Source: Patescibacteria group bacterium
Lineage (GTDB): Bacteria; Patescibacteriota; Patescibacteriia; JAXHNJ01
DNA length: 64,000 nucleotides
Direction: 5' to 3'
Assembly (NCBI GenBank): GCA_041649715.1
Contig: JBAZMP010000001.1
Span: 210,741 to 274,740 of the forward strand
Positions 19,490 through 47,054 of this stretch are shown here, piece after piece. The notes beneath the pieces are model-generated. The model made no database searches. It saw only the letters and a list, made by a program, of their open reading frames with translations, and was not told the origin of the DNA. Each line of letters starts with the position of its first letter. Positions within the stretch are counted from its first letter, which is position 1. The position numbers were made by a program, and so were the translations under genes.

Positions 19490-20401
19490 TTATTCCTTAA
19501 CGTCTGCCATCCTTCTTAAGGCGGCCACCCGTTCATCAATGGGAGGATGGGTGGAAAATAATCGATTAAAGCCCTTAGCCGCTTTTTCGCCGAAAGGGCT
19601 GGCAATATACAGATGCGCCGTCGCTTGATTGGCGCGTTGAAGAGGCTGTTTATACTGGGAAATCTTTTCTAAGGCGGTCGCCAAGCCTTCTGGATACCGG
19701 GTAAGAAGAGCGCCGGAAGCATCGGCTAAGTATTCTCTTTTTCGGGAAATGGCGAATTGAAGAAGTTTAGCAAAAATCGGAGAAAGTATCAGAAAGACCA
19801 AGCCGATAATTAAAAGGATGAGGCCGATTTGTCCGCCCAAAGAACTGCGGTTGCGCCGGCCGCCGAACAATCTAAAACGGAAAAACCATTGGCCGATTAG
19901 AGTAACTGTTCCGACCAGGACAATGACGATCATCATGAGCCTAATGTCATAATTTTTGATGTGGGATAATTCATGGGCGATCACGCCTTCCAGCTCCTCG
20001 TTTTTCAGCTTTTCGATAATCCCAGAGGTCAGGGCGATAGAAGCGTGTTTGGGGTCGCGGCCGGTGGCAAAGGCATTAGGCGTGGGATCGCTAATGATAT
20101 ATATTTTCGGCAGGTCCAGGCCGGCGGTAATGCAGAGATTCTCCACTAAGCGATAAACATAGGCGTTATCTTGTTTTTCAATTGGTTTAGCGCCGGCGGT
20201 CCAGAGGGCGATCTTATCACCTGAATACCAGCTTATTAAAGTCATCATTCCGGAAATAACCAGGGCGATAACTAATCCGGTATAGCCGGCGTCCGAGAAT
20301 TGACCGATAAAGTAGCCCAAAACTAATAATAAAGCGATAAAAACAAACATAAGTAAAAAGCTGCGGCGTTTATTTGAATTTATGAAGTCGTAGGTTGTCA
20401 T
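19490..20401 (-). CDS. htpX: HtpX-like M48 zinc metalloprotease
   Basis: 303 aa. Four TM segments. HELSHIKNYD (HExxH). Downstream E..AD motif. Confidence 0.85.
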   Translation of the reverse strand: MTTYDFINSNKRRSFLLMFVFIALLLVLGYFIGQFSDAGYTGLVIALVISGMMTLISWYSGDKIALWTAGAKPIEKQDNAYVYRLVENLCITAGLDLPKIYIISDPTPNAFATGRDPKHASIALTSGIIEKLKNEELEGVIAHELSHIKNYDIRLMMIVIVLVGTVTLIGQWFFRFRLFGGRRNRSSLGGQIGLILLIIGLVFLILSPIFAKLLQFAISRKREYLADASGALLTRYPEGLATALEKISQYKQPLQRANQATAHLYIASPFGEKAAKGFNRLFSTHPPIDERVAALRRMADVKE

Positions 20402-20407
20402 GTTTTT

Positions 20408-20440
20408 ACTCGGAACTTTGAACTTTGAACCTGGAACTTA
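20408..20440. repeat. Left flank repeats of the four-helix-bundle cassette: ACTCGGAAC plus tandem GAACTTT GAACTTT GAACCTG GAACTTA
   Basis: ACTCGGAACT is the reverse complement of the AGTTCCGAGT repeats on the right flank. Four tandem 7-mers follow. Confidence 0.5.
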
Positions 20441-20464
20441 TGTTTAAAGTCCAGTGTTCATAAT

Positions 20465-20821
20465 TCAAGCTCTTAGTTTCTTAATAAATCCTGAAAGTTG
20501 TTTGCCTAAATTTTCTGCTTCTCCGAGTAATTTTTCGTATTCATTCTTTGTTACGTATTTTTCACCTAAGGCAATATCAATGCAAGCAATAATTTCCTCT
20601 AAAGACGCCAAAGAAATATTCAAAAATCGGGCAAAATCAGTATCACTATGTTTATTTGATCCTTCCGCGATATTTAACAGGATAGAATTAACCGCTCGGC
20701 GGACTTGTGAAGTCAAAACAAACAGCTCATCTTTAGGGAATTTTCTTGATAATACATAAATTTCTCGCCTAAAAGCTTGCGCGTCTTTATAAACAGGAAA
20801 ATTTCTGAATCTAAATAGCAT
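20465..20821 (-). CDS. Four-helix-bundle protein (the family formerly called 23S rRNA intervening-sequence protein)
   Basis: 118 aa. NFPVYKDAQAFRREIYVLSRKFPKDELFVLTSQVRRAVNSILLNIAEGSNKHSDTDFARFLNISLASLEEIIACIDIAL matches the conserved pattern of this family. Confidence 0.8.
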   Translation of the reverse strand: MLFRFRNFPVYKDAQAFRREIYVLSRKFPKDELFVLTSQVRRAVNSILLNIAEGSNKHSDTDFARFLNISLASLEEIIACIDIALGEKYVTKNEYEKLLGEAENLGKQLSGFIKKLRA

Positions 20822-20884
20822 ATTGTTAATTAAACTTCGGACAATGTACTATGAACATTAAACTTATTTACCTATCACAAAAAT

Positions 20885-20908
20885 GTTCCGAGTTCTTAGT
20901 TCCGAGTT
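20885..20908. repeat. Right flank direct repeats GTTCCGAGTT x2
   Basis: GTTCCGAGTT-CTTA-GTTCCGAGTT, inverted relative to ACTCGGAAC at 20408. Confidence 0.5.
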
Positions 20909-20911
20909 AGA

Positions 20912-21466
20912 CTAAAAGTTGACCTTTGGCGCTTCTTTCGCTTCTTCTTGCTCCAGTTCAAAGAATTCTCTGGCCTTGAAACCTAGGCGTTGGGCGAACA
21001 TGTTATTGGGGAAGGTCTGGATCTTGGTGTTGAAGTCGCGGACATTGCCGTTGTAAAAGCGGCGCGAGGCCTGGATCTTGTTTTCCGTGTCGGAGAGCTC
21101 GTCCTGCAGTTTAGCGAAGTTCTCCGAAGCCCGCAATTGCGGATAATTTTCCGCCACCGCGAACAGGCTTTTCAAGGCGCCGGAAAGCATATTTTCCGCT
21201 TTGCCTTTTTCCTCCGGATTCTGGGCGCCCATCGCTTTGGCCCGGGCGTTGGTCACGTTTTCAAAGACCTGTTTTTCGTGGGTGGCATAACCCTTGACTG
21301 TTTCGATCAAATTCGGGATCAGGTCATATCTCCTTTTTAACTGGACATCAATATCCGACCAGGCTTCGTCGGTCTGATTTTTCAGGCGGATCAAGCCGTT
21401 ATAAATGGCGACCAGCCAGAAGATGAAAACGAGGATCAGGCCGAGTAAGATGTATACAATATACAT
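20912..21466 (-). CDS. lemA: LemA-family membrane protein
   Basis: 184 aa. N-terminal TM. LemA pattern IPNLIETVKGYATHE...ENYPQLRASENF. Confidence 0.85.
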   Translation of the reverse strand: MYIVYILLGLILVFIFWLVAIYNGLIRLKNQTDEAWSDIDVQLKRRYDLIPNLIETVKGYATHEKQVFENVTNARAKAMGAQNPEEKGKAENMLSGALKSLFAVAENYPQLRASENFAKLQDELSDTENKIQASRRFYNGNVRDFNTKIQTFPNNMFAQRLGFKAREFFELEQEEAKEAPKVNF

Positions 21467-21502
21467 TACTTAATTCCTTTCTTTATTGATTAATATTAAT
21501 AT

Positions 21503-22039
21503 TTAAATTTTATCTGAAGAATATCTTTTTTCCACTTTTTTTACGGAAAATTCCGCTTTGTCTTTTATGTTGCTGGCGGAATAAACGGTCACGGTGTCGC
21601 CCTTTCGGATATCTTTAAGATTAATGAGGGTGGTGCCTGTCGTTTCGGTCGCTTTTGGCCCCTGTTTGGACAGTTCATCGATATCCCTTTTAATTATGGC
21701 GGCGTCCGGATTTATTTCGGCTTTAAAAACCGCTTTCATGATTTTATCGCCCTGGGAGTAGACGGATTCTAAGTAAAGAGTTTGGTCTTCCAGGGCAACC
21801 ACTTTTCCGGTGCGGGTAAAGATGGCGGTTCTTTCCGGCCTATTTAGTAAATTATCCGCCACTGTAATCTCGCCGATAACCTGTGGGGTCAAAGAAATAT
21901 TTAGTTCGCTTTTATTTATGTTCAGGCCAAAATAAAGTATAGCGCCGAAAGAAATGACAAAAATCAGTCCGCTAAAGATGATGAGGGGCCAGTAATAAAT
22001 ATTTAATCCACTTTTAGATCGGGGGATTGGTTTTTTCAT
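21503..22039 (-). CDS. Hypothetical membrane-anchored protein
   Basis: 178 aa. One N-terminal TM. No motif recognised. Confidence 0.45.
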   Translation of the reverse strand: MKKPIPRSKSGLNIYYWPLIIFSGLIFVISFGAILYFGLNINKSELNISLTPQVIGEITVADNLLNRPERTAIFTRTGKVVALEDQTLYLESVYSQGDKIMKAVFKAEINPDAAIIKRDIDELSKQGPKATETTGTTLINLKDIRKGDTVTVYSASNIKDKAEFSVKKVEKRYSSDKI

Positions 22040-22186
22040 TTGACAATATCGGTATAATATGTTTTAATAATACAGTGTTATTTATTAGACAAATACCCTT
22101 TTCTTATGTTATTATATGATCAGACAGAAGAACTGTCAAAACAGGATTTTGCCATATTTTTCAAAAATATTAATCTTTGTAAATCT

Positions 22187-23422
22187 ATGCTAAATATCAA
22201 GAGCAAAAACAAAAATCCGATCGGTTTTCTAGCCATCCTTGTTATTCTGGGATGGTTTTTTGTGGCGGGAAGAGAAAGTTTGGCTTGGACCGAACCTATG
22301 GCCGCCCCGCCCGGCGGCAATGTGCAGGCGCCGATAAATGTCTCGGCCACGGCGCAGGCAAAGATCGGCTCTTTGACTTTGGGGGTTGACAACGCTAACC
22401 CCGGTCTTTTAAGGCTTTACCCGGCCGGGCAATTATCTGGCAGTTGCTCGGAAGGGCAGTTGGCTTATTGGAGCGGCTCTGGTCTTTATTATTGCGCCAT
22501 CAGCGGCGCCAGCACCGTCTGGCGAGGTTTAAAAACGGCCAGCGGTTTTGTACTTGAAGATGACACCCAATTGGGCTGGGGTTATTTAAAAAATGATGAT
22601 AATCCGGAAGTAGAATATGCCCTTAAGGCGGTTGGTTATAGCCAAGACGGTGGTTTGCCGTACTATACTGGCATTGAGGGAGCGGCCGGCGATAATAGTG
22701 AAAAAAATTACGGCATTTATGGCACAGATGCTGGGTTCAATAATGCCTATGCCGGTTATTTCCAGGGCAATGTGGGGGTTTCTAAAAGCACGGGCGGAGA
22801 GACAAGATTACAAGTGGGAACGAATAATAGCGATGATCAAGTTAGTCTTTGCTTGAATGATAGCGGTTGTCTCACCAGCTGGCCGTTAGGCGGGGGCAGT
22901 TACTGGACGCAAAATGATTATGACACTTATTTGACCAAAACGGATAAGAATTTGGCGCTAGGCGGCAGTGAAGCAAATGAGTCGGCTTTTTACGTGAATG
23001 TGGCCAATAATATTGATAATAACGTTAAAACAATAATTGGCCAGCCGGAAGATTTGCTCCAGGAGGATCTTTCGGCCGTGACGAGCTATTTTTGCGGAGA
23101 CGGCGCCTGTATGGCGACTGAGAATAATACCAATTGTTCCGCTGATTGCCCGCCTGTTTTTGCCGCTAATAACCCGTTCTACAACAATACCAATAAAATA
23201 ATGATCTGGTCGGCTGATGAAGCTAATTACGGGACAGTTTGTTATGGCGTTAATTCATATGACGAACATTGCGGTGACAATTCTTTAGGACAACCATCAG
23301 CGGGTAATGCGGCGTATATCACCGGCTACACCCTGGGTACTTCTTATCACGCTCAAGTCAAGATTTGGGATCAATATGGTAATGTGACGTATAGCATAGA
23401 TATTCCTTTTACCCCCTCCTAG
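22187..23422 (+). CDS. Secreted surface protein, paralog family 1 (shared N-terminal motif, YAGYF motif, FN3-like C-terminus)
   Basis: The track ORF starts at 22106, but the likely start is the internal Met at 22187 (MLNIKSKNKNPIGFLAILVILGWFFVAG signal/TM). Motif WTEPMAAPPGGNVQAPINVSATAQAKIGSLTLG is shared with 23443..25650. Also AYAGYFQGNVGV. Confidence 0.5.
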   Translation: MLNIKSKNKNPIGFLAILVILGWFFVAGRESLAWTEPMAAPPGGNVQAPINVSATAQAKIGSLTLGVDNANPGLLRLYPAGQLSGSCSEGQLAYWSGSGLYYCAISGASTVWRGLKTASGFVLEDDTQLGWGYLKNDDNPEVEYALKAVGYSQDGGLPYYTGIEGAAGDNSEKNYGIYGTDAGFNNAYAGYFQGNVGVSKSTGGETRLQVGTNNSDDQVSLCLNDSGCLTSWPLGGGSYWTQNDYDTYLTKTDKNLALGGSEANESAFYVNVANNIDNNVKTIIGQPEDLLQEDLSAVTSYFCGDGACMATENNTNCSADCPPVFAANNPFYNNTNKIMIWSADEANYGTVCYGVNSYDEHCGDNSLGQPSAGNAAYITGYTLGTSYHAQVKIWDQYGNVTYSIDIPFTPS

Positions 23423-23442
23423 TTAAAACCGTTTTTTTATTT

Positions 23443-25650
23443 ATGTTTTTGCGAAAAAATCGTTTGAGCCGATTATTTGCCTTGTCAATTTTAATATTCG
23501 CCGGATTTTTTCTGATAAGCGAGGAAAGCCGAGCCTATTGGACCGATCCGACCGTCGCTCCGACCAGCGGCAATCTGGCGGTGCCGCTCAATTTTTCGTC
23601 TGTGGCGCAAACAAAAATCGGCCCCCTGACCTTAGGCGGCAGCGGCAATGCCGGCATCCTTGGTTTATATCCCAGCACCTTTGATCCGATTAATGATACT
23701 TGCACAGTCGGTCAGATCGCTTATAACGGCGGCAAGCAGATGTATTATTATTGCGACGACAGTAACCATTGGCAAAGTTTTGCCAACGCAGGAAAAATTT
23801 TTCAATTATTGGATGATAGCCAGGGAGGGTGGGGTTTTATCAAAGTGGCTGATCCGTACGAAAGTTCCTATGGTTTGAGAGGCGAATATTCGTATATACC
23901 TTATGGAAGAGGCATAGTCGGGGAAGCCGGTTTTAACCCGACCGATGAGACAAAAAGCATCGGGATTTACGGCCAGGACAGCGGTTTTGCCGACGCCTAC
24001 GCCGGCTTTTTTGAAGGAAACATAGAAATTCAAAAAAGTGATAATAGCACGGCAGAAAATCCGACAAAGCTGAGCATCGGCACCAGCGCCGAACAGGTAA
24101 AGTTATGTTTAAATAATAGCGGCTGCTTGTCGGATTGGTGGACAAGTGGAGAAGGCGATCCCTTTTGGCTGGACAACGGCCCGCAAGTTTATCTCGATGA
24201 AGCTTCACCTAACCGGGTGCTTTTAGGCGGCACCACCGCGACCGAGGCGAGATTTATCGTGCGGACCGGCGAACACAAAAGCGTGGTCATCGGCCGGCCG
24301 ACAAGCGTCGTCCCCTATACCTGCGGTGACGGCATTTGCCAGACCTGGGAAGGCAATATCATAGATTTGACAAGAGTACCGCCGGCGGAGGTCGCTTGTC
24401 CCCAAGATTGCGTGCCGGTCATAAAGGATGTGAATGTGACGCCATCCGGAGTGACAGCCAGGGTTTGTTATACGGTGGATGAATTAGTATCTGATACGCA
24501 CGTTGAATACCGTCTGCCGGCCGCGCCCGCCTATTTAACTTATCCCATTCCCCCAAGGACGAATGTCAGCGGTAATATCTGTATTGATCTGATCAATTTA
24601 GCGGCGAACACCGAATATGAATTCCGCGTATACGCCAAGGATAACTATGATAACGAGACTTATACCAATCCTTCAAATTTTCTCACAACGGGTTGCGGGG
24701 ACGGCATCTGCGCCGCGGGAGAAACCTGCATGGGCTGTAATGAAGACTGCTTGGGTAAAAAAGGCGGGGGCGGCTGTCTGGCCAGTCAGTATTGTTGTGA
24801 AGAGGGGTGTACGGAATGTTGTGTTGGCAGTGAAGGCCAGTGCCCGGTCGGCCAGGCGTGCGTCCTTCCGGGTATTTGCCAGCCTACCTGTGCTAATGAT
24901 GGTCAGTGCGGGGCGGGCCAGGTCTGCTGTTCTGGTTTCTGCAAGTTCGGCCAATGTTGCGTCAATCCTGACCCCGCGCACTGCGATATCGTCCCCTTTA
25001 CCAAATGTTACAGCAGCACATGCATGCAATGCATAGTGGCCGCGGATTGTAGCGTCTATGGTCTGAATAAATGTTGCACTTCTCCCAGTGGCATGAAGTT
25101 CTGCGGCAACTGCTGCTCAAACAAGGATTGTACAAACCCTCTTTATCCTGAGTGTTGTGCTTCTGGTTCTTACTTGAAGTGTCAAAAATCAAGCGCTTGC
25201 GTCGGCGGCGGCGGCTGCTTCCTAGCCAAGACTAATATTCTTATGGCTGATAATTCCCAAAAACCGATAGAAGAAGTAAAAATTGGAGATCTGGTCTACG
25301 GGTATCAAGACGGCCGGCTGATGTCAGCCAGAGTCGTCCAGACCTTCAAGCATTCCGACGTCAGTCGGTACTACTTATTAACGCTAGAAAACAGCCAGCG
25401 TCTTAAAGTGACCGGCATCCATCCTATCTTTGACGGCAAGGAATATATTAAGGTGGAAGATTTGGCTATCGGCGACACGGTGTATATCCGCGATAATGAT
25501 GTTTTAGAACCGATAAAGATAACGAACATCAGAATTATCGATCAAAGCATTGAGGTCTATAATCTGGAAGTTGACCAGACGAATAATTATTTTGCCGAAG
25601 GGGTGCTGGTGCATAATAAAACTTGGCCGGGTACCCCGGGCACAAATTAA
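23443..25650 (+). CDS. Large secreted protein: shared N-terminal motif, FN3-like domain, Cys-rich region, C-terminal Hint (intein-like) domain
   Basis: 735 aa. YWTDPTVAPTSGNLAVPLNFSSVAQTKIGPLTLGG. AYAGFFEGNIEI. FN3 signature NTEYEFRVYAKDNYDNETYTNP. About 170 aa with roughly 40 Cys. Hint domain at 25216..25611. Confidence 0.7.
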   Translation: MFLRKNRLSRLFALSILIFAGFFLISEESRAYWTDPTVAPTSGNLAVPLNFSSVAQTKIGPLTLGGSGNAGILGLYPSTFDPINDTCTVGQIAYNGGKQMYYYCDDSNHWQSFANAGKIFQLLDDSQGGWGFIKVADPYESSYGLRGEYSYIPYGRGIVGEAGFNPTDETKSIGIYGQDSGFADAYAGFFEGNIEIQKSDNSTAENPTKLSIGTSAEQVKLCLNNSGCLSDWWTSGEGDPFWLDNGPQVYLDEASPNRVLLGGTTATEARFIVRTGEHKSVVIGRPTSVVPYTCGDGICQTWEGNIIDLTRVPPAEVACPQDCVPVIKDVNVTPSGVTARVCYTVDELVSDTHVEYRLPAAPAYLTYPIPPRTNVSGNICIDLINLAANTEYEFRVYAKDNYDNETYTNPSNFLTTGCGDGICAAGETCMGCNEDCLGKKGGGGCLASQYCCEEGCTECCVGSEGQCPVGQACVLPGICQPTCANDGQCGAGQVCCSGFCKFGQCCVNPDPAHCDIVPFTKCYSSTCMQCIVAADCSVYGLNKCCTSPSGMKFCGNCCSNKDCTNPLYPECCASGSYLKCQKSSACVGGGGCFLAKTNILMADNSQKPIEEVKIGDLVYGYQDGRLMSARVVQTFKHSDVSRYYLLTLENSQRLKVTGIHPIFDGKEYIKVEDLAIGDTVYIRDNDVLEPIKITNIRIIDQSIEVYNLEVDQTNNYFAEGVLVHNKTWPGTPGTN
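25216..25611 (+). other. Hint / bacterial intein-like autoprocessing domain (C-terminal, non-splicing type)
   Basis: Begins CFLAKTNILMADNSQKPIEEVKIGDLVYG (Hint block A with Cys1). KVTGIHPIF (TxxH block B). Ends EVYNLEVDQTNNYFAEGVLVHN, followed by K rather than C/S/T and only 13 more residues. Confidence 0.75.
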
Positions 25651-25710
25651 CGGCTATTAGTTTTGACAATAATTTTCGACCGATATTAATCAAAATTTTA
25701 TAAAATTAAT

Positions 25711-27693
25711 ATGAATAATATGAACTTAAGGAACCGTTTAATTAAATTATCTCTCGTTTTTGTCCTGATGGCGGCCGGATTTATAATTATCGGCCGGGGC
25801 AAAGCCGTCCCGGCGGATCCGGGCCAGACTTTTCTCTCGCCGCAGCTGGCCACCCTGCTTGACCCGGCCGATCTTAATCTGGAAAGTGCAAAAAAAACCA
25901 GCTGGTTTGATAACATTATCCCGACCGCCCAGGCGGCTCCGCCTTTTAGCAATGATGGCTCTAATCCGAGAAAGCTGACCATTTACGGCGGGGTGCTGAC
26001 GATTGTCAACGGTACTTCAAACGTGACGCACGCCCTGGAAATCGGACAGGAACGCCTGGGGGCGCAATCCCTCGAAGGCAAGGGATTGGCTTTGGCGACC
26101 ACTGGTAATCTGTATCTTGTCCCCAATGCCTCACAGGATCTTTACGTCAGTCCGGAAAATCCTCCTCGCGATTTCGCCACCACCACCCTGAATTCCTTGT
26201 ATATCGGCGAAAGGCCCAATGAATCAAATCTAACCGTTGACCGAAGGGACTGGGAGGCGAAAGTCAATGCCAATAATAAAGTCGGCATTTACGCCAACAA
26301 CCCAGGCGCTGATTACGCCCTTTACGTCGAACAGCACTGGGCCAATAACCGCGGCGGCGGTGTGAACATTTACGCCGACAACAGCCCTTTAGCTACTTTA
26401 AGGGCGGTCAACCGCTACGGCAGCGGCTACAGCGGTTATTTTTTAGGGAAAACATATATCAGTAAACCATATAATAAAAGCGGATTGACCCCGCCGGAAC
26501 ATGAAGCCCTGACTGATTTCAACACCAATGCCACTTTGGTAGTGAGGAATAAAGAGGGTGGCAATATCGCCAATGATGATTTAAGTAAAGGCAGTCTCGG
26601 CGACGCTATCTATGCGATCGCTAACAGCGCCAATGCGGCTATCTCCGCCAGTCAGATCGGCACCGGCTACGCCGGGTATTTTTCCGGCCGGGTTTACGCA
26701 ACTCCGAAGCTGGTAGTTAATCGGGATGGGATTTTTGACCTCGGCACGGATAATGACGCGGTATATATTCGGGCGAATAACAACACTAGCGGCGTTACCG
26801 GGGCAGCTTTGCGAGTGGTTCAGGATTTTGCCGGGAGTCGAGCTGCTTGGTTTTCTGGCAACGTGTACATGTATAAAGGTTCAACGCTAGCCGGTCGGAC
26901 GGAATTAGAAGCCCGCAACGTAATGCTAAAAGTAAATACGTCAGAGGGCCGGGCGAATCTAGTTGGTATAACCAGCCTTGAATCAAAAGTTGGTGACGGC
27001 GGCACTGCGATAAAAGGTACTCTTGACACAGTTGCCGATGGCAAAGCCATCTCCGGAGAAGTGACATCCACTGTTCAAGATTCATCCAATCCTGGCATTT
27101 ATGCCGGTTATTTTAAATGTCCTTCAGGATTATTTACTTATACCAAGCGTTGCCAGGCGGGTTATTTTGAGGGCCCCGTTGGAGTATTTATACCCCCTTC
27201 TTACTCATTGGGAGCGACGACAACTGGTCTGAATATTCTTAATGCAGAATACCGCAGGCCCATAGGCCTTAACGTGGAAGTAGGCACTTCTTCCTGGACT
27301 TCTGACGGTCCTTTATATGGCATCCGCGTGGTGACTGGAAATCATGATAACAGCGGCGGCACTAATTTATATAATTACGGCATATGGTCTGAAGTCGGCA
27401 GCGCGGGCACGTCCGGCACTCGCGCCAGCTACGCTCTATACGCGAAAGCAACCGGGCTTTCTCATGTTGCCTATGCCGGTTATTTTGAGGGCGATGTCAA
27501 CGTGACCGGTAATTTAACCCACGCCGGTAATAAGGTATTGGACAGAAGTTGTTTTCTGACGAGTAATGAATATGGCGCAGGTATACAAAATCCCTGCCCA
27601 ATAGATTGCGGTGCTGGCAATACCGCTGTGAGCCGAGTCAATGTGTCTAGTTTTGATAATTATACCTGTGTCGCCATTTGTTGCCCGACTTAA
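25711..27693 (+). CDS. Large secreted protein with repeated YAGYF(E/S/L)G motifs and Cys-containing C-terminus
   Basis: 660 aa. N-terminal TM. At least five copies of G(Y)AGYFxG(x)V-like motifs. Confidence 0.55.
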   Translation: MNNMNLRNRLIKLSLVFVLMAAGFIIIGRGKAVPADPGQTFLSPQLATLLDPADLNLESAKKTSWFDNIIPTAQAAPPFSNDGSNPRKLTIYGGVLTIVNGTSNVTHALEIGQERLGAQSLEGKGLALATTGNLYLVPNASQDLYVSPENPPRDFATTTLNSLYIGERPNESNLTVDRRDWEAKVNANNKVGIYANNPGADYALYVEQHWANNRGGGVNIYADNSPLATLRAVNRYGSGYSGYFLGKTYISKPYNKSGLTPPEHEALTDFNTNATLVVRNKEGGNIANDDLSKGSLGDAIYAIANSANAAISASQIGTGYAGYFSGRVYATPKLVVNRDGIFDLGTDNDAVYIRANNNTSGVTGAALRVVQDFAGSRAAWFSGNVYMYKGSTLAGRTELEARNVMLKVNTSEGRANLVGITSLESKVGDGGTAIKGTLDTVADGKAISGEVTSTVQDSSNPGIYAGYFKCPSGLFTYTKRCQAGYFEGPVGVFIPPSYSLGATTTGLNILNAEYRRPIGLNVEVGTSSWTSDGPLYGIRVVTGNHDNSGGTNLYNYGIWSEVGSAGTSGTRASYALYAKATGLSHVAYAGYFEGDVNVTGNLTHAGNKVLDRSCFLTSNEYGAGIQNPCPIDCGAGNTAVSRVNVSSFDNYTCVAICCPT

Positions 27694-27731
27694 ATTTTGT
27701 CTTTGATTTATAAATAAGAAACAAATAGTAT

Positions 27732-30700
27732 TTGATGCCTAAGCTAATCCGCGAAAATCCCGCTTATTTCATCGTTCCGATTTTTGTCCTGATCATCGGC
27801 GCCGTGTTTTTTTTCGCGGAAAAAGGCGGCCAGGCCAAGGAGTGGGAGCGCCTGGCCTCGCCGGCCGGTTTCACCCAGGGTCGGCTTAGCGGTATTACCG
27901 CCTACTATGACACTTCTAGCAACCGTTTAATGCTTTGGGCGATGGGTGGCGGTTATATCGGGGGGGTATCCCACCCCTCTGGTATGCCGGACGTCGCAGC
28001 CATTCTTTCTTATGATAGCCTAAGTGGGGACTGGAAGGGCCTGCAAGCGAATAATTCCGGTTTGATAAACGCTGTTTCTAATTATGACCCTTTAAGCAAA
28101 TATACCTATGCGGTGGGAGACCAGGGAACAATCCTTATGAAAGTCAGTCTTACGAGTGAGTGGCAGATATATCACGAATATAACAATGGTTCAGGCTGGT
28201 TTCTTGACCCGTTGAATGGAGACATGTCTTACGCGACACCAATTCCCGTTGAGAATGATAACCTGACCGATGTCAGTTTTTATAGCTCTGGTGACAGCAG
28301 TAATTTTAGTGTTAATGCCTGGGCGACTGGCTATAACTATCAAACTAAAAAGGGAAATATCTTTAAAACAACCAGTTCTCTAGGGATAAAATGGGTAAAT
28401 GACCTAAGTAATGTTGGCTTTCCTTTGCTCGGCCTCCAAATGATTAAAGAGGGCACTAGTTGGGCGGTGGGGGCGAACCACACTATTTATAAGTATTCGG
28501 GGGGCGCTTGGACGGAATACACCGCGACTGATCTGTCTTCCTTAAACTTCGACTCTTGCACAGAAAGCGGCAATAATGACTTTTGCTCCGGAAATCCCTC
28601 ATGGTCGTGCGTCGCCGGTTCAGCTTTAGCCACCGAAGACTGCATCATCGATTTTGAGGATGTCTATTTTACCGATAATAGCCACGGCTGGATCCCGATC
28701 TCTAGCAAAAAATACCTTTATTATAATGGAGCCAGCTGGCAAATAAGGTCAACTCTCCGGCCAGGAAGCGAGCCGGAAGTAAAAATGCACGCGGTGGCCG
28801 GCGGTCTGGACAATAATGTCCCTTATATTTGGTTTTCCGGCCAGGCGGGCATGACTATTTTCGCTCCCAACGCCACGGAGGCTGTTGATCACTGGTTGCG
28901 GCAGTCAACGCCGAATCTAGACACCGGCCGTTTGAACAATCTTTTTGTCCTTGATTCAACCCATGCCTGGTCAGCCGGTTATTTTAATACGGCCGGTCAG
29001 CTGCTCAGCGATAATATAGTCCTGAAGCTTTCTTCGGGCAATACGGCCGGCTACGCATATATCGGGGCGGATAACTGCGAAAATACCTGTATTGATAGCG
29101 TTGCCGGCGGCGCCTGCCAAACTGATCCTTCCGCCATAAATTGTCCATCTTCCGGCCTGCCCCGTCAGGCGCCTTTGGGCTGGGTGAGTTTTAACTGCGT
29201 CAATAATGGATCCTGCGAAAGCAATCCCTTTATTTACGGCGTGGATTTGAAGAAAGAGACAGAAACGACGGATCCAAATGATTCCTGCGTTAACAAGGAT
29301 CCCGACCCCAGTTTTCAGGATAAAGACGTTGGCGCTCTTTCCGGTCAGGCCTGGCTCGGGGTGACCGATCCCGACGAACGCAGTGACGACACCTGCGCTT
29401 TAGACGTTTGTTCAAACAATAATCAGAAGTCTTGTGATGATGACGATGACTGCGCTTTGTGCGGGAATAACCCGGCGAGTTGTTTTTCCCCGGGCTGGCT
29501 TTCTTTCGACCGGAATGAAACCAGTAATCCACCCAGTTCGCCATATATAGCAACTATGTCGCCTTTTTATACGCCTTGCGGAAAACCTATCACTGTCTTT
29601 GATTACGAAAAATACGCCATGGCCTTTTTTAGTTATGAGGATTACGCCGTGAGAGGGTGGGGGAAGTTCAAGCTCGGGCAATGTTCTGGTAATTTAAGCA
29701 AGTCTTGTTATAAAGACGGGGATTGCGAGTCGGGCGATACCTGCAGATTTGATTTTAACGGTATTCATTACTGCAGTTTGGATAGCAGCCTAAGATGTTC
29801 GACTAGCGCTGAATGCGCGGCACAGGGCAAGGGCATTTGTGATCAAACCGCCCAAGGCTGGCTTAAATTAAGGGGCGGAAAAAATTACAGCCTCGACAGT
29901 CCCAATGGCGAGCCGCCTCCAATTACGGCGCCGACCAACCGGTATATTTACCATAATTGTAATGCCTGCACCTTAGTTGATCCCAATCTCGTCACGGCTT
30001 ACATGACCTGTAAAATCTGCGATGGCTTGAATATTGATGGCACGGCCGCAAATTACGCCTGTAATAAATGCGGTGAAGGCTCAAACAGGTGCGGCGACGG
30101 CCGTTGCGATAATAATACTTTAAAAGTCTGCGTTCAAAATTCAAATTCCAGCCTAGACTCTTGTAAGCCAGGAGGCACCTGCCAGCCAAGCGGTTATTGT
30201 TCCGCCGGCTCGGGAGCCCTGGCCTATAAACCTTGCGCCGCCAAAAATGGCCATTGCGGCACCGACGGCATTTGCCAGCGGGGTTATTGCTCGGCTGGAT
30301 CAAGCAACAGATATAATCCCTGTTATAATGATGAAGATTGTCCGAGTGGTTCGTCATCCGGCTACTGCGAAATTAAGAATCCGGTCACCTGCAATCAGTG
30401 CGCTTCCTGCGATGCTTACGGCGTTTCCGTGGATATCAATGCCGGTAATTTTTACGGCTACGCTTGGTCGGAGGATTTCGGCTGGGTGGATATGTCGCGC
30501 GTCACTTTGGGCGGGGCGGCCTGGTTGCAGACGCTCTTCGGCGATATTTACGGCCAGCAAGGGGTGGGTTCGACGAAGACGGCGAAAGCGCCGTGCGCGG
30601 CAAACACCTATAACGCCACTTATTTGATTTTAGCCGGTGAGGCCGGCAAGATTGTTAACTTCTGTACCGAGTCTATTTCTTCTTCGGCTGAAGGGGAAAG

Positions 30701-31427
30701 CAACAGATTGGTTCCTTCCGTCGGTCAGCCGCAGTCTACGGCAAACCCTTGGCTGGTGGAGCAATATCGTAAATTTACCCTGCCGAATGCCAGCTTGCCC
30801 AATAGTATCCTTGGCCGGGTGGATTATAATAATATGAAAAAAGATTGCGGCGCGCTCGGCACATATTATGACGGAGATCTGACTTTGATCGGGGGCACGT
30901 ATTTTGATATTGCCAACGGATTAGCCGGCAAGACTTATTGTGTTCGTAAAGCGGAGGGTCACAACGGTGATTTTACTATCTCTATTCCCCTGACCTTTAA
31001 TAATGCCAAAAATACGGTTACCGACGGTTCGGGACTTTTTGTCGTTGACGGCAATTTAAATATCCAAAACAATATAAAATATATGGATAATGAAGCGGCC
31101 ATAACCAATCTGAAAAAATTAGCTTCGGTCGCCTTTTACGTCAAAGGAGATATCTATATCAGCCCGACGGTTGACACCCTTGTCGGCACCTATTATGCGG
31201 AAGGAAAAATAATCACCCAAAGCATGGGTTCCGCCGATAAAAAACTGACGGTTTACGGGACAATGATTGCCCGCGAGTTTGATCTTGGCAGGCGGTATAA
31301 AGGTACGATCTCCAATCCTCAGCCCTCAGAGCTCTTTATTTATGACGGACGCGTGCAACTGAATCCGCCGCCGGGTTTCCGGGATTTAAGTCAGTCTTTG
31401 CCGAAAATAACAGATGTTTCTCTTTAG
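27732..31427 (+). CDS. Giant secreted Cys-rich surface protein
   Basis: 1231 aa. N-terminal TM. More than 70 Cys in CxxC/CxDxxC-like spacings. No enzymatic motif recognised. Confidence 0.55.
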   Translation: MMPKLIRENPAYFIVPIFVLIIGAVFFFAEKGGQAKEWERLASPAGFTQGRLSGITAYYDTSSNRLMLWAMGGGYIGGVSHPSGMPDVAAILSYDSLSGDWKGLQANNSGLINAVSNYDPLSKYTYAVGDQGTILMKVSLTSEWQIYHEYNNGSGWFLDPLNGDMSYATPIPVENDNLTDVSFYSSGDSSNFSVNAWATGYNYQTKKGNIFKTTSSLGIKWVNDLSNVGFPLLGLQMIKEGTSWAVGANHTIYKYSGGAWTEYTATDLSSLNFDSCTESGNNDFCSGNPSWSCVAGSALATEDCIIDFEDVYFTDNSHGWIPISSKKYLYYNGASWQIRSTLRPGSEPEVKMHAVAGGLDNNVPYIWFSGQAGMTIFAPNATEAVDHWLRQSTPNLDTGRLNNLFVLDSTHAWSAGYFNTAGQLLSDNIVLKLSSGNTAGYAYIGADNCENTCIDSVAGGACQTDPSAINCPSSGLPRQAPLGWVSFNCVNNGSCESNPFIYGVDLKKETETTDPNDSCVNKDPDPSFQDKDVGALSGQAWLGVTDPDERSDDTCALDVCSNNNQKSCDDDDDCALCGNNPASCFSPGWLSFDRNETSNPPSSPYIATMSPFYTPCGKPITVFDYEKYAMAFFSYEDYAVRGWGKFKLGQCSGNLSKSCYKDGDCESGDTCRFDFNGIHYCSLDSSLRCSTSAECAAQGKGICDQTAQGWLKLRGGKNYSLDSPNGEPPPITAPTNRYIYHNCNACTLVDPNLVTAYMTCKICDGLNIDGTAANYACNKCGEGSNRCGDGRCDNNTLKVCVQNSNSSLDSCKPGGTCQPSGYCSAGSGALAYKPCAAKNGHCGTDGICQRGYCSAGSSNRYNPCYNDEDCPSGSSSGYCEIKNPVTCNQCASCDAYGVSVDINAGNFYGYAWSEDFGWVDMSRVTLGGAAWLQTLFGDIYGQQGVGSTKTAKAPCAANTYNATYLILAGEAGKIVNFCTESISSSAEGESNRLVPSVGQPQSTANPWLVEQYRKFTLPNASLPNSILGRVDYNNMKKDCGALGTYYDGDLTLIGGTYFDIANGLAGKTYCVRKAEGHNGDFTISIPLTFNNAKNTVTDGSGLFVVDGNLNIQNNIKYMDNEAAITNLKKLASVAFYVKGDIYISPTVDTLVGTYYAEGKIITQSMGSADKKLTVYGTMIAREFDLGRRYKGTISNPQPSELFIYDGRVQLNPPPGFRDLSQSLPKITDVSL

Positions 31428-31508: not shown

Positions 31509-32594
31509 ATGGCCCTTTTTGGGGGTAAGAAAAGTTATCTTGGTCTGGATTTAGGCACTTCTTCCATAAAATTAGTGGAATTGGCCGCTTTTGGCACCGA
31601 GCCGCGGCTTTTGACCTATGGATTTATTGAAGAGCCGACGGACATGGTAAAAAGCGACTCGGAGCTGGCTCGGGGTCGTCTGGTCAGTTTTTTGAAACAA
31701 TTGATCAAAAAAACCAAGGTTGGGTCCAATAAAGTGGTGGCCGCTTTGCCCTCCTTTACCGTATTTTCCTCCATTATCTCCCTGCCGGCCATGTCTAAGA
31801 AAGATTTGAACGCGGCCGTGCGCTGGGAAGCGAAAAAATTCGTGCCCATGCCTCTGGAAGAAATGGTTTTGGACTGGCGGCTTCTCAAGGAGACGACAGG
31901 CGAAAAGGGCGGAGCGATGGCGGCCATGTCCATGAGATCAAGGGAAATGATCAAGAATTACCGTATCTTGCTGACCGCCGCCCCGAAAAATCTGGTCAAG
32001 CGCTATATTGAGTTATTCAAAGCCTTAAATCTGACCATCGTTAGTCTGGAAACCGAGGCTTTTGCCCTGGAAAGATCGCTGATCGGTTCCGATCCCTCGC
32101 CGATGATGATCGTGGATATCGGAGCGCTGGCCAGCGATATCAGCGTTATCTACGAAGGCGTGCCGATTTTAAACCGCGGCATTGATATCGGCGGAGAAAC
32201 GATTACCCGGGCGGTGGCGAATGCCCTGAATATTGATCTGGAAAGAGCCGAACAATTCAAGCGCGATTTTGGCTTGTCCGCCGGTTCCGGCGCGCAGGGT
32301 CAAATTCCCAAGACCATTGAATTTGTCCTTTCCTCTCTGATCAACGAGATCAGGCACGTTTTCACCCTCTACCGCAACGTGGAGGAAGCGCCGATTGAAA
32401 AAATCGTCTTGTCCGGCGGCTCGGCCTTTCTGCCCCAATTGCCGGAATATTTATCCCGTCTTTTCAACATTAAAGTGATTATCGGTGATCCCTGGTCAAG
32501 GATCGCTTACCCGGCGGAACTAAAGCCGGCCCTGGAAGAAATAGGGCCCCGATTTTCCGTGGCCGCCGGTCTGGCCATGCGGGAAATAATTTAA
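31509..32594 (+). CDS. pilM: Type IV pilus assembly protein PilM
   Basis: 361 aa. Actin-like ATPase fold signature LGLDLGTSSIKLVEL. PilM length. Confidence 0.85.
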   Translation: MALFGGKKSYLGLDLGTSSIKLVELAAFGTEPRLLTYGFIEEPTDMVKSDSELARGRLVSFLKQLIKKTKVGSNKVVAALPSFTVFSSIISLPAMSKKDLNAAVRWEAKKFVPMPLEEMVLDWRLLKETTGEKGGAMAAMSMRSREMIKNYRILLTAAPKNLVKRYIELFKALNLTIVSLETEAFALERSLIGSDPSPMMIVDIGALASDISVIYEGVPILNRGIDIGGETITRAVANALNIDLERAEQFKRDFGLSAGSGAQGQIPKTIEFVLSSLINEIRHVFTLYRNVEEAPIEKIVLSGGSAFLPQLPEYLSRLFNIKVIIGDPWSRIAYPAELKPALEEIGPRFSVAAGLAMREII

Positions 32595-32609: not shown

Positions 32610-33752
32610 ATGCCAGATATTAATTTACTAAAAGACACTCTCGCTTCGCAAGAAGAAAGAAGGAAAAAGGAGGTTTTCTCTTCCCCGGCTTTTAAAAGAC
32701 CCGAAGCCCCTCCCGAGCCTCCCGAGAACCAGCCAAAAAGTTCTTCGTTTTTTTCTTCTATTAAAAAGATTTTCTCCGGTAAGCGGCGAGATGAGGATGA
32801 AGTGACCGTGGCGCCCCTGATCAAGGCTTCAACCTACCAGCGGGAAGAATTTATGAGGACCAAAGCGACCGGTAAAGCCAAGGAGGGAAACGGCAGCCCC
32901 GAGGATATTTTTGCCGAAAAAATAACAGAGGGGGGAAATAAGCCGTTTGTTCCGCTGGCCGAGATAGTTCCGCCCGAAGAAAATATTCCGCTAAAGGCAG
33001 ATAAGAAAACGAAAAAAGAAGAAATAGAAGAGGGAAGCGGTTCATTCCTCGTCAATCTCCTGCCGGAAGAACTTATTGGCCAGGAAGCGCCGCGACAGAA
33101 ATTGATAGTTATGAGCGTTTCTTTTTTGGCCGCCGTTATGCTGATCGCGCTGGTCTATTATGTTTTATTGTTCTATCAATCAAGCATAGAAACTAAGACC
33201 GCCGAGGTGAAAACGCAAAAAATCGAGGTGACCGGTGAAATCAGTAAATATGAGAATCTCCAGAAAGAATCCATCGCTTTTAAGGGGAAAATTGACGCCG
33301 TAAGCGATCTTTTAGATACTCACATATACTGGACAAAATTTTTCGAAAAATTGGAAAACAATACCCTGCCGGACGTTTATTACAGCGGAGTTTTTAACGC
33401 CTCCAACTCCACGGTTTTATCCCTTAAAGCGGTGGCACCGGATTTTGAAACGGTGGCGAAACAGCTTTTAGTTTTTCAGAACGCGACGGATTTTGCGACG
33501 GCGGCGGAAATTACCTCGGCTCGGCGGGTGGCGGCCACTTCTTCTTCAAGTGTTTTAGCCCCGGGCGTGGTTATCGCCAGTCAGGTGGAATTTGACATTG
33601 ACCTGGTCTTAAATCCGGCAATTTTCTATAGAACCGAAAATGAGCCAGGCGAAAACACCAATACTAACAGTAATCCCCTGAATAACGCTAACGCGAATAT
33701 TAACGTCAATACTAACGTAAATTCAGCCTCTAATACTAATACTGTAAAATAG
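32610..33752 (+). CDS. pilN: PilN-like fimbrial assembly protein with low-complexity extensions
   Basis: 380 aa. N-terminal INLLK motif. Single TM (LIVMSVSFLAAVMLIALVYYVLLFY). Asn-rich C-terminal tail. Confidence 0.55.
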   Translation: MPDINLLKDTLASQEERRKKEVFSSPAFKRPEAPPEPPENQPKSSSFFSSIKKIFSGKRRDEDEVTVAPLIKASTYQREEFMRTKATGKAKEGNGSPEDIFAEKITEGGNKPFVPLAEIVPPEENIPLKADKKTKKEEIEEGSGSFLVNLLPEELIGQEAPRQKLIVMSVSFLAAVMLIALVYYVLLFYQSSIETKTAEVKTQKIEVTGEISKYENLQKESIAFKGKIDAVSDLLDTHIYWTKFFEKLENNTLPDVYYSGVFNASNSTVLSLKAVAPDFETVAKQLLVFQNATDFATAAEITSARRVAATSSSSVLAPGVVIASQVEFDIDLVLNPAIFYRTENEPGENTNTNSNPLNNANANINVNTNVNSASNTNTVK

Positions 33753-33765
33753 TTCTCTTTAGGTT

Positions 33766-34431
33766 ATGACATTTAATTTTTCCGCAATAACTTCAAAATT
33801 GAAAAACCTGGTAAGCAAGTATTTTCGTTTTATACTTGTGATAATTATCGCTATTGTCTTGATTATCGGCTACACTTCAGTGATAAAGCCGAAGTGGTCC
33901 GAGATACAGCAAGCCGGTATTTTCGACTACAATAAGGAGAAAAAAAGTTTGGAGGAAAACAATCAGTACCTTGATCGCCTTAAAGCCTCTTTGGAAAAAT
34001 ATAATGGCATCAATAAAGCGGAAGTGGACAAGATCAGCCGGATTATCCCTTCAAGTGATTCCGTGTCCGATCTGTTCGTCCTTTTTGAAGAATTGGCCAA
34101 GACCAGCGATCTAAATTTGGACAGTATCAACATCTCATCGGCAAAAAGCCTTACCGGGGAGTCAAGCACGCCGACCGGAACTTCGCCGACCACGGAGGTG
34201 AAGGCAGTCACCCCCGCTTCAAAGAATATTTACGTTCAGGATATTGCTCTTCATCTTTCCGGGGCGAAAAATTACGAGAATCTAAAAGAATTCCTGGAGA
34301 TTTTAGAAAAGGAAATGAGACTTATTGACGTTACTTCTTTGAGCTTTGACTCCAAAAATTTTGAAAACAATGAATCTGAAAGCGATATCAGTCTGAATTT
34401 AAAGACCTATAACTATCAGGAAAAAGAATAA
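33766..34431 (+). CDS. pilO: PilO-like pilus assembly protein
   Basis: 221 aa. TM followed by a coiled-coil region. Sits at the PilO position in the locus. Confidence 0.45.
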   Translation: MTFNFSAITSKLKNLVSKYFRFILVIIIAIVLIIGYTSVIKPKWSEIQQAGIFDYNKEKKSLEENNQYLDRLKASLEKYNGINKAEVDKISRIIPSSDSVSDLFVLFEELAKTSDLNLDSINISSAKSLTGESSTPTGTSPTTEVKAVTPASKNIYVQDIALHLSGAKNYENLKEFLEILEKEMRLIDVTSLSFDSKNFENNESESDISLNLKTYNYQEKE

Positions 34432-34742: not shown

Positions 34743-36509
34743 ATGTCGGTTAATTATAAAAATTCGGGCAATTCGGCTCCGGAAGACGAACTTCTGGAGT
34801 TTTTACTGCAGGGAAAGTTGATCAACCGGACGCAGTATGAAGAGATAAAAAACGAGATGGCAAAAAGCAACCGGCCGTCAGATAAGATCATTGAAGAAAA
34901 AAAATTGGTCCGCGAGGATGATCTTTATCAGATCAAGTCAAAGATTTATAATTTGCCCTATCTGGATCTCTTCGGCCGGATCGTACGGGCCGAGGTTCTG
35001 AACATAATTCCTAAAGAACTGGCGGAAAATTATCGAATGGTCGCTTTCAATAAGTCTGACCAGGAATTAAGCGTGGCTATGGTGGAACCGACCAATTTCC
35101 GGGCCCTGGAAGCAATCGAGTTTATCGCCCGCAAAAACCACTTTAAGATCAAATATTACATCACTTCGCCCTCTTCTCTTAAATATATCCTTCGGCAGTA
35201 TGAAACGCTTTCCGCCGAAGTCGAAGAAGCCCTGCAGGGGGCCGAAACGGAAGCCATGGAGGTTAAGGAGATATCTTTGGCGGAAGAGGGTCTGGAGGAA
35301 GTGGTCAAAACCGCGCCGGTTTCCAAGATGGTTTCCGTCATATTAAGGCACGCGGTCGAGGGCAAGGCCTCGGATGTTCACATCGAGCCATTCGGGGCGG
35401 AGACACGGGTGCGCTATCGTATTGACGGTATTCTGCACACTTCGTTGATTTTACCCCGTCACGTTCATTCCGCCATTGTCGCCCGCATAAAAGTATTATC
35501 CAACCTGAAAATTGATGAAACGCGCGTGCCGCAGGACGGCCGCTTTAAGATGACTTACGAGGGCCGAGATGTCGATTACCGTATTTCCACCCTGCCTTTG
35601 ATCAATAACGAAAAAGTGGTGATGCGTATCTTGGATACCACGTCGAGCATGAGCAATCTGGCCGATCTTGGTTTCTGGGGCAAGTCGATGGAGATTATGA
35701 AAGCGAATATCGATAAATCACACGGCATGTTCCTTATCACTGGTCCCACCGGTAGCGGAAAATCCACCACTCTTTACGCCTTGATGAGCATATTAAATCA
35801 GGAAGAGGTCAATATCATCACTCTTGAAGATCCCGTGGAATACTATATGAAAGGCGTTAATCAAAGCCAGGTGAATCCGGAAGTGGGGCTGACTTTTGCC
35901 GCCGGCTTGCGGTCTATCTTGCGCCAGGATCCGGATATCATCATGGTCGGTGAGGTCCGGGACAATGAAACAGCCGAACTCGGCGTGCACGCCGCTTTGA
36001 CCGGGCATATTGTCCTTTCCACCCTGCACACCAATGACGCCATGGGGGCGGTTCCCCGGATGATCGATATGAAAGTGGAGCCCTTTTTGCTCACGTCTTC
36101 CGTGAACCTGATCATGGCCCAGCGTCTGGTGCGCCGCATCTGCCCCCATTGCAAAAAAGAAATTACCCTGGCTTCAACCCTGGAAGATGAGGTTATGGAG
36201 GAATTAAAAGTTATTCCCAAGGAGCATCAACCCACTGATATTAAATTGGTCAGACCATTTAAGATGTTCATGGGGCAAGGCTGCGTCCGGTGCGACAATA
36301 CCGGATATAAAGGCAGAATCGCCATTTGTGAGGTTTTGGAAATCAACGAACGGATGAAGAAGATAATTCTTGAGGGAGGCGACATGGTCCTTAAGATAAG
36401 GGAAGAATTCTTGAAACAGGGCAATTATTTTATGAGACAAGACGGTATTGTTAAGGCTTTCCGGGGATTGACCACCATTGAAGAAGTTTGGGACGCGACC
36501 CGATCTTAG
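34743..36509 (+). CDS. pilB: Type IV pilus assembly ATPase PilB (GspE family)
   Basis: 588 aa. N-terminal GspII-like domain. Walker A ITGPTGSGKSTTLYA. Asp box DIIMVGEVRDNETA. His box GHIVLSTLHTND. Tetracysteine CPHC...CVRC. Confidence 0.9.
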   Translation: MSVNYKNSGNSAPEDELLEFLLQGKLINRTQYEEIKNEMAKSNRPSDKIIEEKKLVREDDLYQIKSKIYNLPYLDLFGRIVRAEVLNIIPKELAENYRMVAFNKSDQELSVAMVEPTNFRALEAIEFIARKNHFKIKYYITSPSSLKYILRQYETLSAEVEEALQGAETEAMEVKEISLAEEGLEEVVKTAPVSKMVSVILRHAVEGKASDVHIEPFGAETRVRYRIDGILHTSLILPRHVHSAIVARIKVLSNLKIDETRVPQDGRFKMTYEGRDVDYRISTLPLINNEKVVMRILDTTSSMSNLADLGFWGKSMEIMKANIDKSHGMFLITGPTGSGKSTTLYALMSILNQEEVNIITLEDPVEYYMKGVNQSQVNPEVGLTFAAGLRSILRQDPDIIMVGEVRDNETAELGVHAALTGHIVLSTLHTNDAMGAVPRMIDMKVEPFLLTSSVNLIMAQRLVRRICPHCKKEITLASTLEDEVMEELKVIPKEHQPTDIKLVRPFKMFMGQGCVRCDNTGYKGRIAICEVLEINERMKKIILEGGDMVLKIREEFLKQGNYFMRQDGIVKAFRGLTTIEEVWDATRS

Positions 36510-36539: not shown

Positions 36540-36959
36540 ATGCATATGAGCGAAGAAAAAGCGAAAAAACAGGGCAAGCCAAAAGTATTGCTGGTGGAGG
36601 ACGATACCTTCCTTTCCGGCATGTACGTGACAAAATTGGGTCTGGAAAATTTCGCCGTCAGTTTGGCCTCCGACGGGAAACAGGGTCTGAAAATGATAAA
36701 GGACGAACTGCCGGATTTGATCCTTCTAGACCTGGTTTTGCCGAAAATCAGTGGTTTTGACATTCTTAAGGAAATAAAAAAGGATAAAAAAACAAAGGAT
36801 ATTCCGGTTATTCTGCTGACTAATTTAGGCCAAAAAAAGGACGTGGAAAAGGGTTTTGCCTTGGGCGCCAACGATTATCTTATCAAGGCTCATTTCATGC
36901 CTTCCGAGGTGGTGGACAAGGTCAAGAATATGATGAACAAAAAATATGCAGGCGAGTGA
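36540..36959 (+). CDS. Stand-alone CheY-like response regulator receiver (PilH/PilG-like)
   Basis: 139 aa. EDD acidic pocket. Phospho-acceptor D in LILLDLVLP. Conserved T (LLTNLG) and K (YLIKA). Confidence 0.8.
   Translation: MHMSEEKAKKQGKPKVLLVEDDTFLSGMYVTKLGLENFAVSLASDGKQGLKMIKDELPDLILLDLVLPKISGFDILKEIKKDKKTKDIPVILLTNLGQKKDVEKGFALGANDYLIKAHFMPSEVVDKVKNMMNKKYAGE

Positions 36960-44175: not shown

Positions 44176-47054
<2,879 letters not shown>

Follow-up and report, generated by a model that had tools for sequence, protein, structure and literature searches.

Almost all Patescibacteria have type IV pili, which in cultivated Saccharibacteria are essential or at least important for host attachment. 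In Nanosynbacter lyticus TM7x, the pilus proteins PilX1 and PilX2 are described as pilin-like "lollipops" with an N-terminal helix and extra domains (a jelly roll and a seven-bladed propeller), and normal host binding requires PilX2, a large protein that is encoded in the pilus locus and lacks a PilD signal (PMC12206443). The pilus-linked families that Meheust et al. (bioRxiv 10.1101/335083) list as enriched in this bacterial group comprise pilins and machine parts only. Further systems that can be compared are the PilY1/PilC proteins of Pseudomonas, Neisseria and Myxococcus, the trimeric autotransporter adhesins (YadA/UspA1), phage tail fibres and tailspikes with Peptidase_S74, and the Hint/bacterial intein-like (BIL) domains of secreted variable proteins. 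Here, we describe four genes, A to D, that precede the type IV pilus locus in a 64,000-nucleotide (nt) stretch of a Patescibacteria group bacterium (GCA_041649715.1, contig JBAZMP010000001.1, positions 210,741 to 274,740), hereafter the window.

With moderate confidence, we read A to D as a hypervariable cassette of Sec-secreted, disulfide-stabilised surface fibre or adhesin proteins that work with the downstream type IV pilus. Like PilX1 and PilX2 of TM7x, they are patescibacterial proteins of a pilus locus that have large extra domains and lack a PilD-type signal; unlike them, they look like Sec-cleaved non-pilins, and the likeness is one of description.

A variable slot in front of pilM

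Wherever sequence beyond the D-type gene is available, in 13 of 13 distinct loci, the gene directly before pilM encodes a protein with the C-terminal domain of D (the window, L001, L002, L005, L013, L014, L016-L020, L027 and L028), although the identity of these D-type proteins to D falls to 27%. The genes between the D-type gene and the divergent genes for LemA and a 178-amino-acid (aa) membrane protein form a slot that holds one to five genes. Proteins with the conserved N-terminal sequence of A and B (the N-motif) are encoded in every locus for which this region is available. The content of the slot differs in both number and form. The window has A, B and C, and L012 has A, a B with Hint domain, and C, whereas a single A/B-type gene accompanies C in L001, and the A/B and C architectures are fused in L013 and L002. 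The slot contains two small proteins in L005, one S74 fibre in L019, one giant of 2384 aa in L027, four genes in L028, and two A/B-type plus two C-type genes in L029.

The cassette evolves far faster than its neighbours, as is expected of host-recognition proteins. Relative to L001, the closest relative, identities are 86% for ClpB and M48 and 87% for LemA on one side, and 75% for PilM, 79% for PilB, and 80% for both PilT and PilC on the other (PilN and PilO, 39% and 38%), whereas they are 37%, 31% and 33% for A, B and C, respectively, and 55% for D. The cassette is thus a rapidly evolving hot spot within a frame of conserved genes.

A comparable pair is found in Saccharibacteria. On contig L011 (6436-11326), an N-motif protein of 904 aa is encoded beside a 721-aa protein with D-type repeats; both genes are located within the pilus locus, with pilD on one side and four pilin genes on the other, and ligA closes this locus as in the window. 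A 6.9-kb contig deposited as part of a Planctomycetota metagenome-assembled genome (MAG) (L002/L004; JAZDFB010000124.1) carries a Patescibacteria-type fused fibre, a D-type gene and pilM, and is probably mis-binned.

The cassette proteins and the surrounding genes

The initial annotation described four large secreted proteins encoded by co-directional open reading frames (ORFs), the last of 1231 aa, immediately upstream of the type IV pilus locus, and this arrangement stands: pilM, pilO, pilB, pilT, pilC, a pilin gene and pilD follow directly downstream (Table 1). The intergenic distances are 20 nt (A-B), 60 nt (B-C), 38 nt (C-D) and 81 nt (D-pilM). The D start is TTG in the ORF list, and NCBI uses the next codon (ATG), which gives 1230 aa. 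The 25 nt upstream of A, B, C and D (22160-22186, 23418-23442, 25686-25710 and 27707-27731) are AT-rich and lack a GGAGG-type Shine-Dalgarno sequence in all four cases. The GC content is unremarkable. Each protein has a single N-terminal hydrophobic segment and no other transmembrane-like window. The view of the four as secreted is supported by these N-terminal signal sequences and by a cleavage pattern across the N-motif family, described below. N_methyl matches are absent from A-D and their N-termini lack G-F-T-L-I-E; a pilin-like reading was therefore rejected, the prepilin leader G↓(F/M)xxxE being absent. The designation "Cys-rich" suits B (47 Cys, 6.4%) and D (52 Cys, 4.2%) but neither A, which has 10 Cys (2.4%), nor C, which has 8 (1.2%), and the count for D replaces an earlier figure of more than 70. 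YAGYF-type motifs occur in three of the four proteins as annotated: A and B have one copy each (YAGFF in B), and C has at least four. D has no motif in common with A-C. The four do not form a single family; they fall into three kinds of protein, namely A/B, C and D. Pfam and NCBIfam have no matching model for A, C or D and cover B in its Hint region only.

A and B are 37% identical across 355 residues (E 7e-56). On this sequence similarity they are paralogues, and the N-terminal motif noticed in both, which is real, is only the start of their resemblance. The motif follows the pattern A↓W-T-E-P..PP.GN...P[IL]N.S...Q.K.G.L, with the family consensus xxA↓WTEPTxAPPGGNVAAPINVSSxxQTKxGxLTLGG, and it is kept in all homologues examined. 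A HMMER search with the A/B profile against 1.84 billion cluster representatives gave 3603 matches at E<=1e-3, many of which cover profile positions about 10-68 only (signal peptide plus motif), and 87 matches at E<=1e-10. Among the best 151 matches, 105 have the N-motif within the first 160 residues; in these the median start of the motif is residue 31, position -1 is Ala in 86, and position -3 is Val or Ala in 63. Because this -3/-1 pattern is that of a signal-peptidase-I site, W-T-E-P would be the mature N-terminus left by a signal-peptidase-I-like cleavage. N-motif proteins range from 88 to 3836 aa in length. The word-indexed homologue searches returned four matches each for A, D and the D alignment.

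The fibronectin type III (FN3)-like modules annotated in two proteins are located at the C-terminus of A and in the middle of B, and are borne out. A PDB search with the A/B family profile finds FN3 chains (E 1e-23 to 1e-6); the AlphaFold2 (AF2) model of A, from an alignment of 40 sequences, is confident at residues 310-411 only, with a predicted local distance difference test score (pLDDT) of around 90; and the best Foldseek matches to this model are without exception FN3 domains. B by itself gives a weak Pfam fn3 match (E 0.15). The first 300 residues of A/B gave no match in the PDB sequence search.

C carries its own signal peptide, a conserved entry motif (WF.NIIP.A.AA.PF...RKLT.YGGV, aa about 64-100), the YAGYF-type repeats at aa 240, 320, 464 and 588, and a small Cys cluster at the C-terminus. 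It has an orthologue in L001 (E 1.7e-65) and no match in Pfam, NCBIfam, PHROG or PDB sequence searches, and (Y)AGYFxG repeats are the sole feature that it has in common with A/B. In other genomes, the A/B-type and C-type architectures are joined in one polypeptide (P0015, 1192 aa, and L002_1022), in which the C module is the C-terminal half and opens with the same entry motif. These fusions indicate that the A/B-type and C-type proteins work as a single fibre, with C as its distal half. Several C-type relatives (the C-termini of P0040 and L002_1022; L029 13501-19240) share a C-terminal domain without family match, DIAE...GD.V....VGV.S...G...PVAL.G.V.VKV...G.I..GD...S...G..MKA...I.....V, which is absent from the C of the window and could be a tip or chaperone module.

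YadA_head repeats, UspA1 repeats and Peptidase_S74 are hallmarks of trimeric fibres. Among the slot relatives, L002_1022 has YadA_head repeats (E 9e-13), others have faint UspA1 repeats, and L019_883 has a Peptidase_S74 chaperone domain (3e-11) together with tail-fibre PHROG matches (1e-17); from these relatives we infer that the fibres trimerise. A fibrous adhesin is also the likely architecture by comparison with the trimeric autotransporter adhesins. In contrast to those adhesins, the organism has no outer membrane, and the conserved end is N-terminal, i.e., the orientation is reversed; C has no match to a YadA-type head or membrane anchor in Pfam, and the anchor domain is seen in no relative. 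The cassette has in common with phage tail fibres a conserved N-terminal end, predicted to serve attachment, and a hypervariable distal end, and L019_883 has the S74 domain and tail-fibre PHROG matches. It differs in that its proteins are cellular, Sec-secreted and chromosomally fixed, with none confirmed in viral contigs, and in that A-C have no S74 domain.

D consists of an N-terminal signal or anchor helix, a repeat region that is probably propeller-like, a stretch of G(W/Y)AW...GW(I/V)SF repeats with Cys-rich inserts, and a conserved C-terminal domain of about 340 residues that is probably beta-solenoid-like. The full-length close homologues of D are 55%, 35% and 39% identical to it, and the C-terminal domain, with the motif WLQT..GDIY...NATYLILAGG.I.NF...DGSGL..VDGDL.I..NI.Y...YDGR...NPPPGF.DL., is far more widespread than these; it has no match in the PDB sequence search. 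D-type proteins are 528 to 1714 aa long, and several have textbook cleavable signal peptides. Their N-terminal parts are mutually unrelated: the D of the window has the propeller-like repeat, the Kerfeldbacteria homologue has a Gly-rich beta-helix, and that of L019 has Cys-rich and GWAWS repeats only. The middle repeat unit of D, GFAWSENxGWISFNC..C..S.YKV, recurs in L008_324 (L008 1930-2904, 324 aa), which is encoded in another Patescibacteria MAG and is a genuine prepilin with the leader NGFTLIETLIY and an N_methyl match.

B ends in a complete Hint/BIL domain, which scores above the Pfam cut-offs (in parentheses) for PT-HINT with 38.0 (27.7), Intein_splicing with 38.1 (35.8) and Hint with 32.5 (29.7) bits and aligns to the solved Hint/BIL domains 6TMM, 6Y75 and 2LWY. 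In the alignment to 6TMM, the catalytic residues are present as Cys1 (C592), T-x-x-H (T-G-I-H) and the terminal H-N (H724-N725). The +1 residue is Lys726, not the Cys, Ser or Thr of a canonical splicing intein, and the host protein does not continue, as only 10 residues follow the domain. B is thus not a canonical intein, nor is it a PT-HINT protein that releases a toxin, and it differs from the known Hint/BIL domains of secreted variable proteins in that canonical splicing is unlikely and in that the domain sits at the extreme C-terminus of a putative surface fibre. The orthologue P0011 has the same architecture, including the short tail, and its Hint is 73% identical to that of B, compared with 44-46% for the remainder of the protein. 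This better preservation of the Hint argues for a maintained self-processing function. The domain would cut itself off via a thioester at Gly591-Cys592, and the cleavage would either trim the fibre tip or ligate it to a nucleophile; water, the 10-residue tail or some other nucleophile may serve as the acceptor of the Gly591 thioester.

Table 1. Positions of the cassette genes, their protein features and the flanking genes in the window
Feature	Nucleotides	Strand	Residues or length	Basis or remark
Gene A (WC528_01135)	22187-23422	+	411 aa	ORF and translation; identical NCBI protein P0001
A, signal peptide			1-33	
A, N-motif (predicted mature N-terminus)	22286-22390		34-68	conserved
A, YAGYF motif			188	
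A, Cys motifs				LCLN..C..W and CGDGxC
A, C-terminal FN3-like domain	23114-23419		310-411	AF2, Foldseek, PDB profile
Gene B, paralogue of A	23443-25650	+	735 aa	ORF and translation
B, N-motif	23539-23640		33-66	
B, YAGFF motif			186	
B, FN3-like region			about 325-415	
B, Cys-rich region	24694-25215		418-591	
B, Hint/BIL domain	25216-25617		592-725	complete; Pfam, PDB
Gene C, putative C-type fibre half	25711-27693	+	660 aa	ORF and translation
Gene D	27732-31427	+	1231 aa	ORF and translation
D, N-terminal signal or anchor helix				
D, seven W-A/S-x-G repeats	27849-29051		about 40-440	possible beta-propeller
D, G(W/Y)AW...GW(I/V)SF repeats	29052-30389		441-886	interrupted by Cys-rich inserts
D, conserved C-terminal domain	30390-31424		887-1231	hidden Markov model (HMM) matches
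Left border of slot, divergent	19490-22039	-		M48 peptidase, 23S_rRNA_IVP/bAvd-like gene, LemA, 178-aa membrane protein; Pfam
23S_rRNA_IVP/bAvd-like gene	20465-20821	-	118 aa	Pfam 1e-31
178-aa membrane protein	21503-22039	-	178 aa	no family match
pilM	31509-32594	+		Pfam PilM_2 3e-39
pilN-like	32610-33752	+	380 aa	no Pfam match
pilO	33766-34431	+		Pfam PilO 5e-5
pilB	34743-36509	+		Pfam set of the pilus locus: T2SSE, T2SSF, N_methyl, Peptidase_A24
pilT	36946-38019	+		same Pfam set
pilC	38178-39386	+		same Pfam set
Pilin	39568-40095	+		N_methyl
pilD	41379-42182	+		same Pfam set
Pilin-like genes	42184-42789, 43457-44170	+		N_methyl
ligA	45030-47054			end of pilus locus

The pilM, pilN-like and pilO orthologues are syntenic in all related loci, and unannotated ORFs are interspersed in the downstream part of the pilus locus. 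The pilN-like protein has an Asn/Thr-rich low-complexity tail, and its orthologues range from 306 to 580 aa. The left border of the slot is the same in L001, L005, L013, L019, L024, L027, L028 and L029. Its 178-aa membrane protein adjoins LemA in all related loci and is 33% identical to its closest orthologue, compared with 87% for LemA.

The four-helix-bundle gene between M48 and LemA, which is also present in L013, matches bAvd at 1e-6, below the cut-off. bAvd proteins accompany diversity-generating retroelements. The direct repeats of the window include none involving 22-32 kb, and no template/variable repeat pair was found in the window; the cassette was therefore rejected as a retroelement target. 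A 197-nt direct repeat of 80% identity (5592-5788 and 8988-9184) lies in ORFs 5388-6662 and 8583-9797, which are probably paralogues.

Relation to the pilus and competing explanations

The initial annotation proposed a cell-surface and host-interaction module. The extracellular location is supported, the link to the pilus is made much stronger by the recurrence of the slot before pilM in many genomes, and the interaction with a host would follow from the scheme outlined here. In this scheme, signal peptidase I would expose on A and B an invariant mature N-terminus (W-T-E-P...) that serves as the conserved docking end, and the distal, host-binding end would be built from C and from the variable parts of A and B (FN3, Cys-rich and YAGYF-repeat), as in the logic of phage tail fibres. 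D would take a PilY1-like role: it would dock on the pilus or pilus machinery through its conserved C-terminal domain and offer binding surfaces through its variable N-terminal modules (the propeller-like repeat and the Cys-rich repeats). Like PilY1/PilC, D is a large non-pilin whose gene belongs to a pilus locus and whose signal is of the ordinary Sec type, with no prepilin leader, and D-type proteins combine a variable N-terminal part, with a propeller-like repeat probable in some members including the D of the window, with a conserved C-terminal domain. On the other hand, D has no sequence match to the PilY1/PilC family, its conserved 340-aa module is of another kind, its gene precedes pilM and does not stand among minor pilins, and the organism has no outer membrane. 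D may thus be likened to PilY1 in logic and to PilX2 of TM7x in context (PMC12206443), without membership in the family.

Several observations weigh against the reading of A-D as pilus-associated fibres and adhesins. All of the evidence comes from genes and sequences, and the signal peptides were assigned by rule of thumb. For D, neither the Pfam scan at E<=1 nor NCBIfam gave a match to any family, PilY1/PilC (PF05567) included; in three D-type proteins, the same region matches DUF7305 with 14.4, 15.0 and 16.4 bits (E 0.036 to 0.009), below the gathering cut-off of 27 bits. AF2 modelled 1199 aa of D from 5 sequences with a mean pLDDT of 32.8, which is unusable, so that the fold of the C-terminal domain of D is judged from relatives and sequence motifs. 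The fibre and trimer ideas have the same footing, since residues 30-300 of A likewise have no usable AF2 model; the A, B and C of the window have no S74 or YadA match in Pfam and no tail-fibre PHROG match. N-motif proteins also occur away from pilus genes, as does P0073, which is encoded beside RNase HII and rpmF, and proteins with D-type repeats are found outside pil loci in L007 and L009. Finally, the whole neighbourhood from ClpB, M48 and LemA to the pil genes is syntenic, and part of the adjacency could therefore be inherited gene order.

The last three of these points also speak for another explanation, namely that the cassette encodes general cell-envelope or S-layer-like surface fibres that share a stable neighbourhood with the pilus genes and do not work with the pilus. 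The ClpB, M48 and LemA side is equally syntenic, so gene order in this clade is conservative, and the N-motif family is large (3603 representatives). However, the D C-terminal domain stays next to pilM in 13 of 13 loci at identities down to 27%, while the contents of the slot change completely; the Saccharibacteria pair is placed elsewhere in the gene order, yet still inside the pilus locus; and a repeat unit of D is present in a true prepilin. We consider this explanation possible, though on the unlikely side.

An alternative that we regard as rather doubtful is that the D-type protein is a structural part of the pilus machine, such as a collar or alignment factor that spans the wall or S-layer, and not an adhesin, with A-C as separate, co-regulated adhesins. 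Its gene lies directly before pilMNO, which encode the alignment subcomplex, and not with minor pilins; the portion conserved in D-type proteins is the C-terminal domain; and Patescibacteria lack PilQ (Meheust et al., bioRxiv 10.1101/335083). Against this, the N-terminal two-thirds are extremely variable in both length and architecture, which is more readily explained by an exposed binding module than by a part of the machine, and D is 55% identical to its closest orthologue compared with 75-80% for PilM, PilB, PilC and PilT.

A role for B as a polymorphic toxin or as an effector of contact-dependent competition, within a cluster devoted to toxin delivery, is very improbable. This explanation is favoured by the PT-HINT match and by the NCBI name of B, "polymorphic toxin-type HINT domain-containing protein," but the 10-residue tail leaves no toxin domain and is equally short in P0011, the next gene is C rather than an immunity gene, and L012 likewise lacks both; the toxin explanation was rejected on these absences. 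Equally improbable, and rejected because two scans of 2.9 million viral contigs, one for A and one for the N-motif, left no relative confirmed, is an origin as remnants of a prophage tail-fibre module: the S74 domain and strong tail-fibre PHROG matches of L019_883 would fit it, but A, C and D have no PHROG matches, those of B are confined to the Hint domain, no phage genes lie nearby, the position is fixed across divergent genomes, and the GC content is unexceptional.

Implications for host recognition

The analysis brings out three unannotated families that are linked to the pilus locus across divergent lineages: the N-motif fibres, their C-type partners and the proteins with the D-type C-terminal domain. 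They show the variation in copy number and architecture, and the evolutionary rate, typical of receptor-binding proteins, and we found no description of the N-motif, C-type or D-type families, or of their link to pilM, in literature searches. The N-motif family is very large, with thousands of cluster representatives, and has no Pfam or NCBIfam model. The cassette may be regarded as a variant of pilus-associated adhesins and tail-fibre-like surface fibres, and its proteins are good candidates for host-cell recognition and grip. Docking, a location at the tip and host binding would be part of this reading. Because a comparable pair is present in a Saccharibacteria pilus locus, this idea is testable genetically in existing model epibionts.

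A bolder proposal, which we put forward as speculative and think improbable, is that the N-motif is a hitherto unrecognised Patescibacteria docking signal that mounts interchangeable, tail-fibre-like receptor-binding proteins on a pilus-associated platform, either the D-type protein or the pilus itself, and that the Hint domain of B yields a reactive C-terminal thioester through which the fibre tip becomes covalently joined to a partner, be it protein C, the cell envelope or even the surface of the host. If this were true, these epibionts would possess a phage-baseplate-like, swappable system of host recognition on a retractile pilus.

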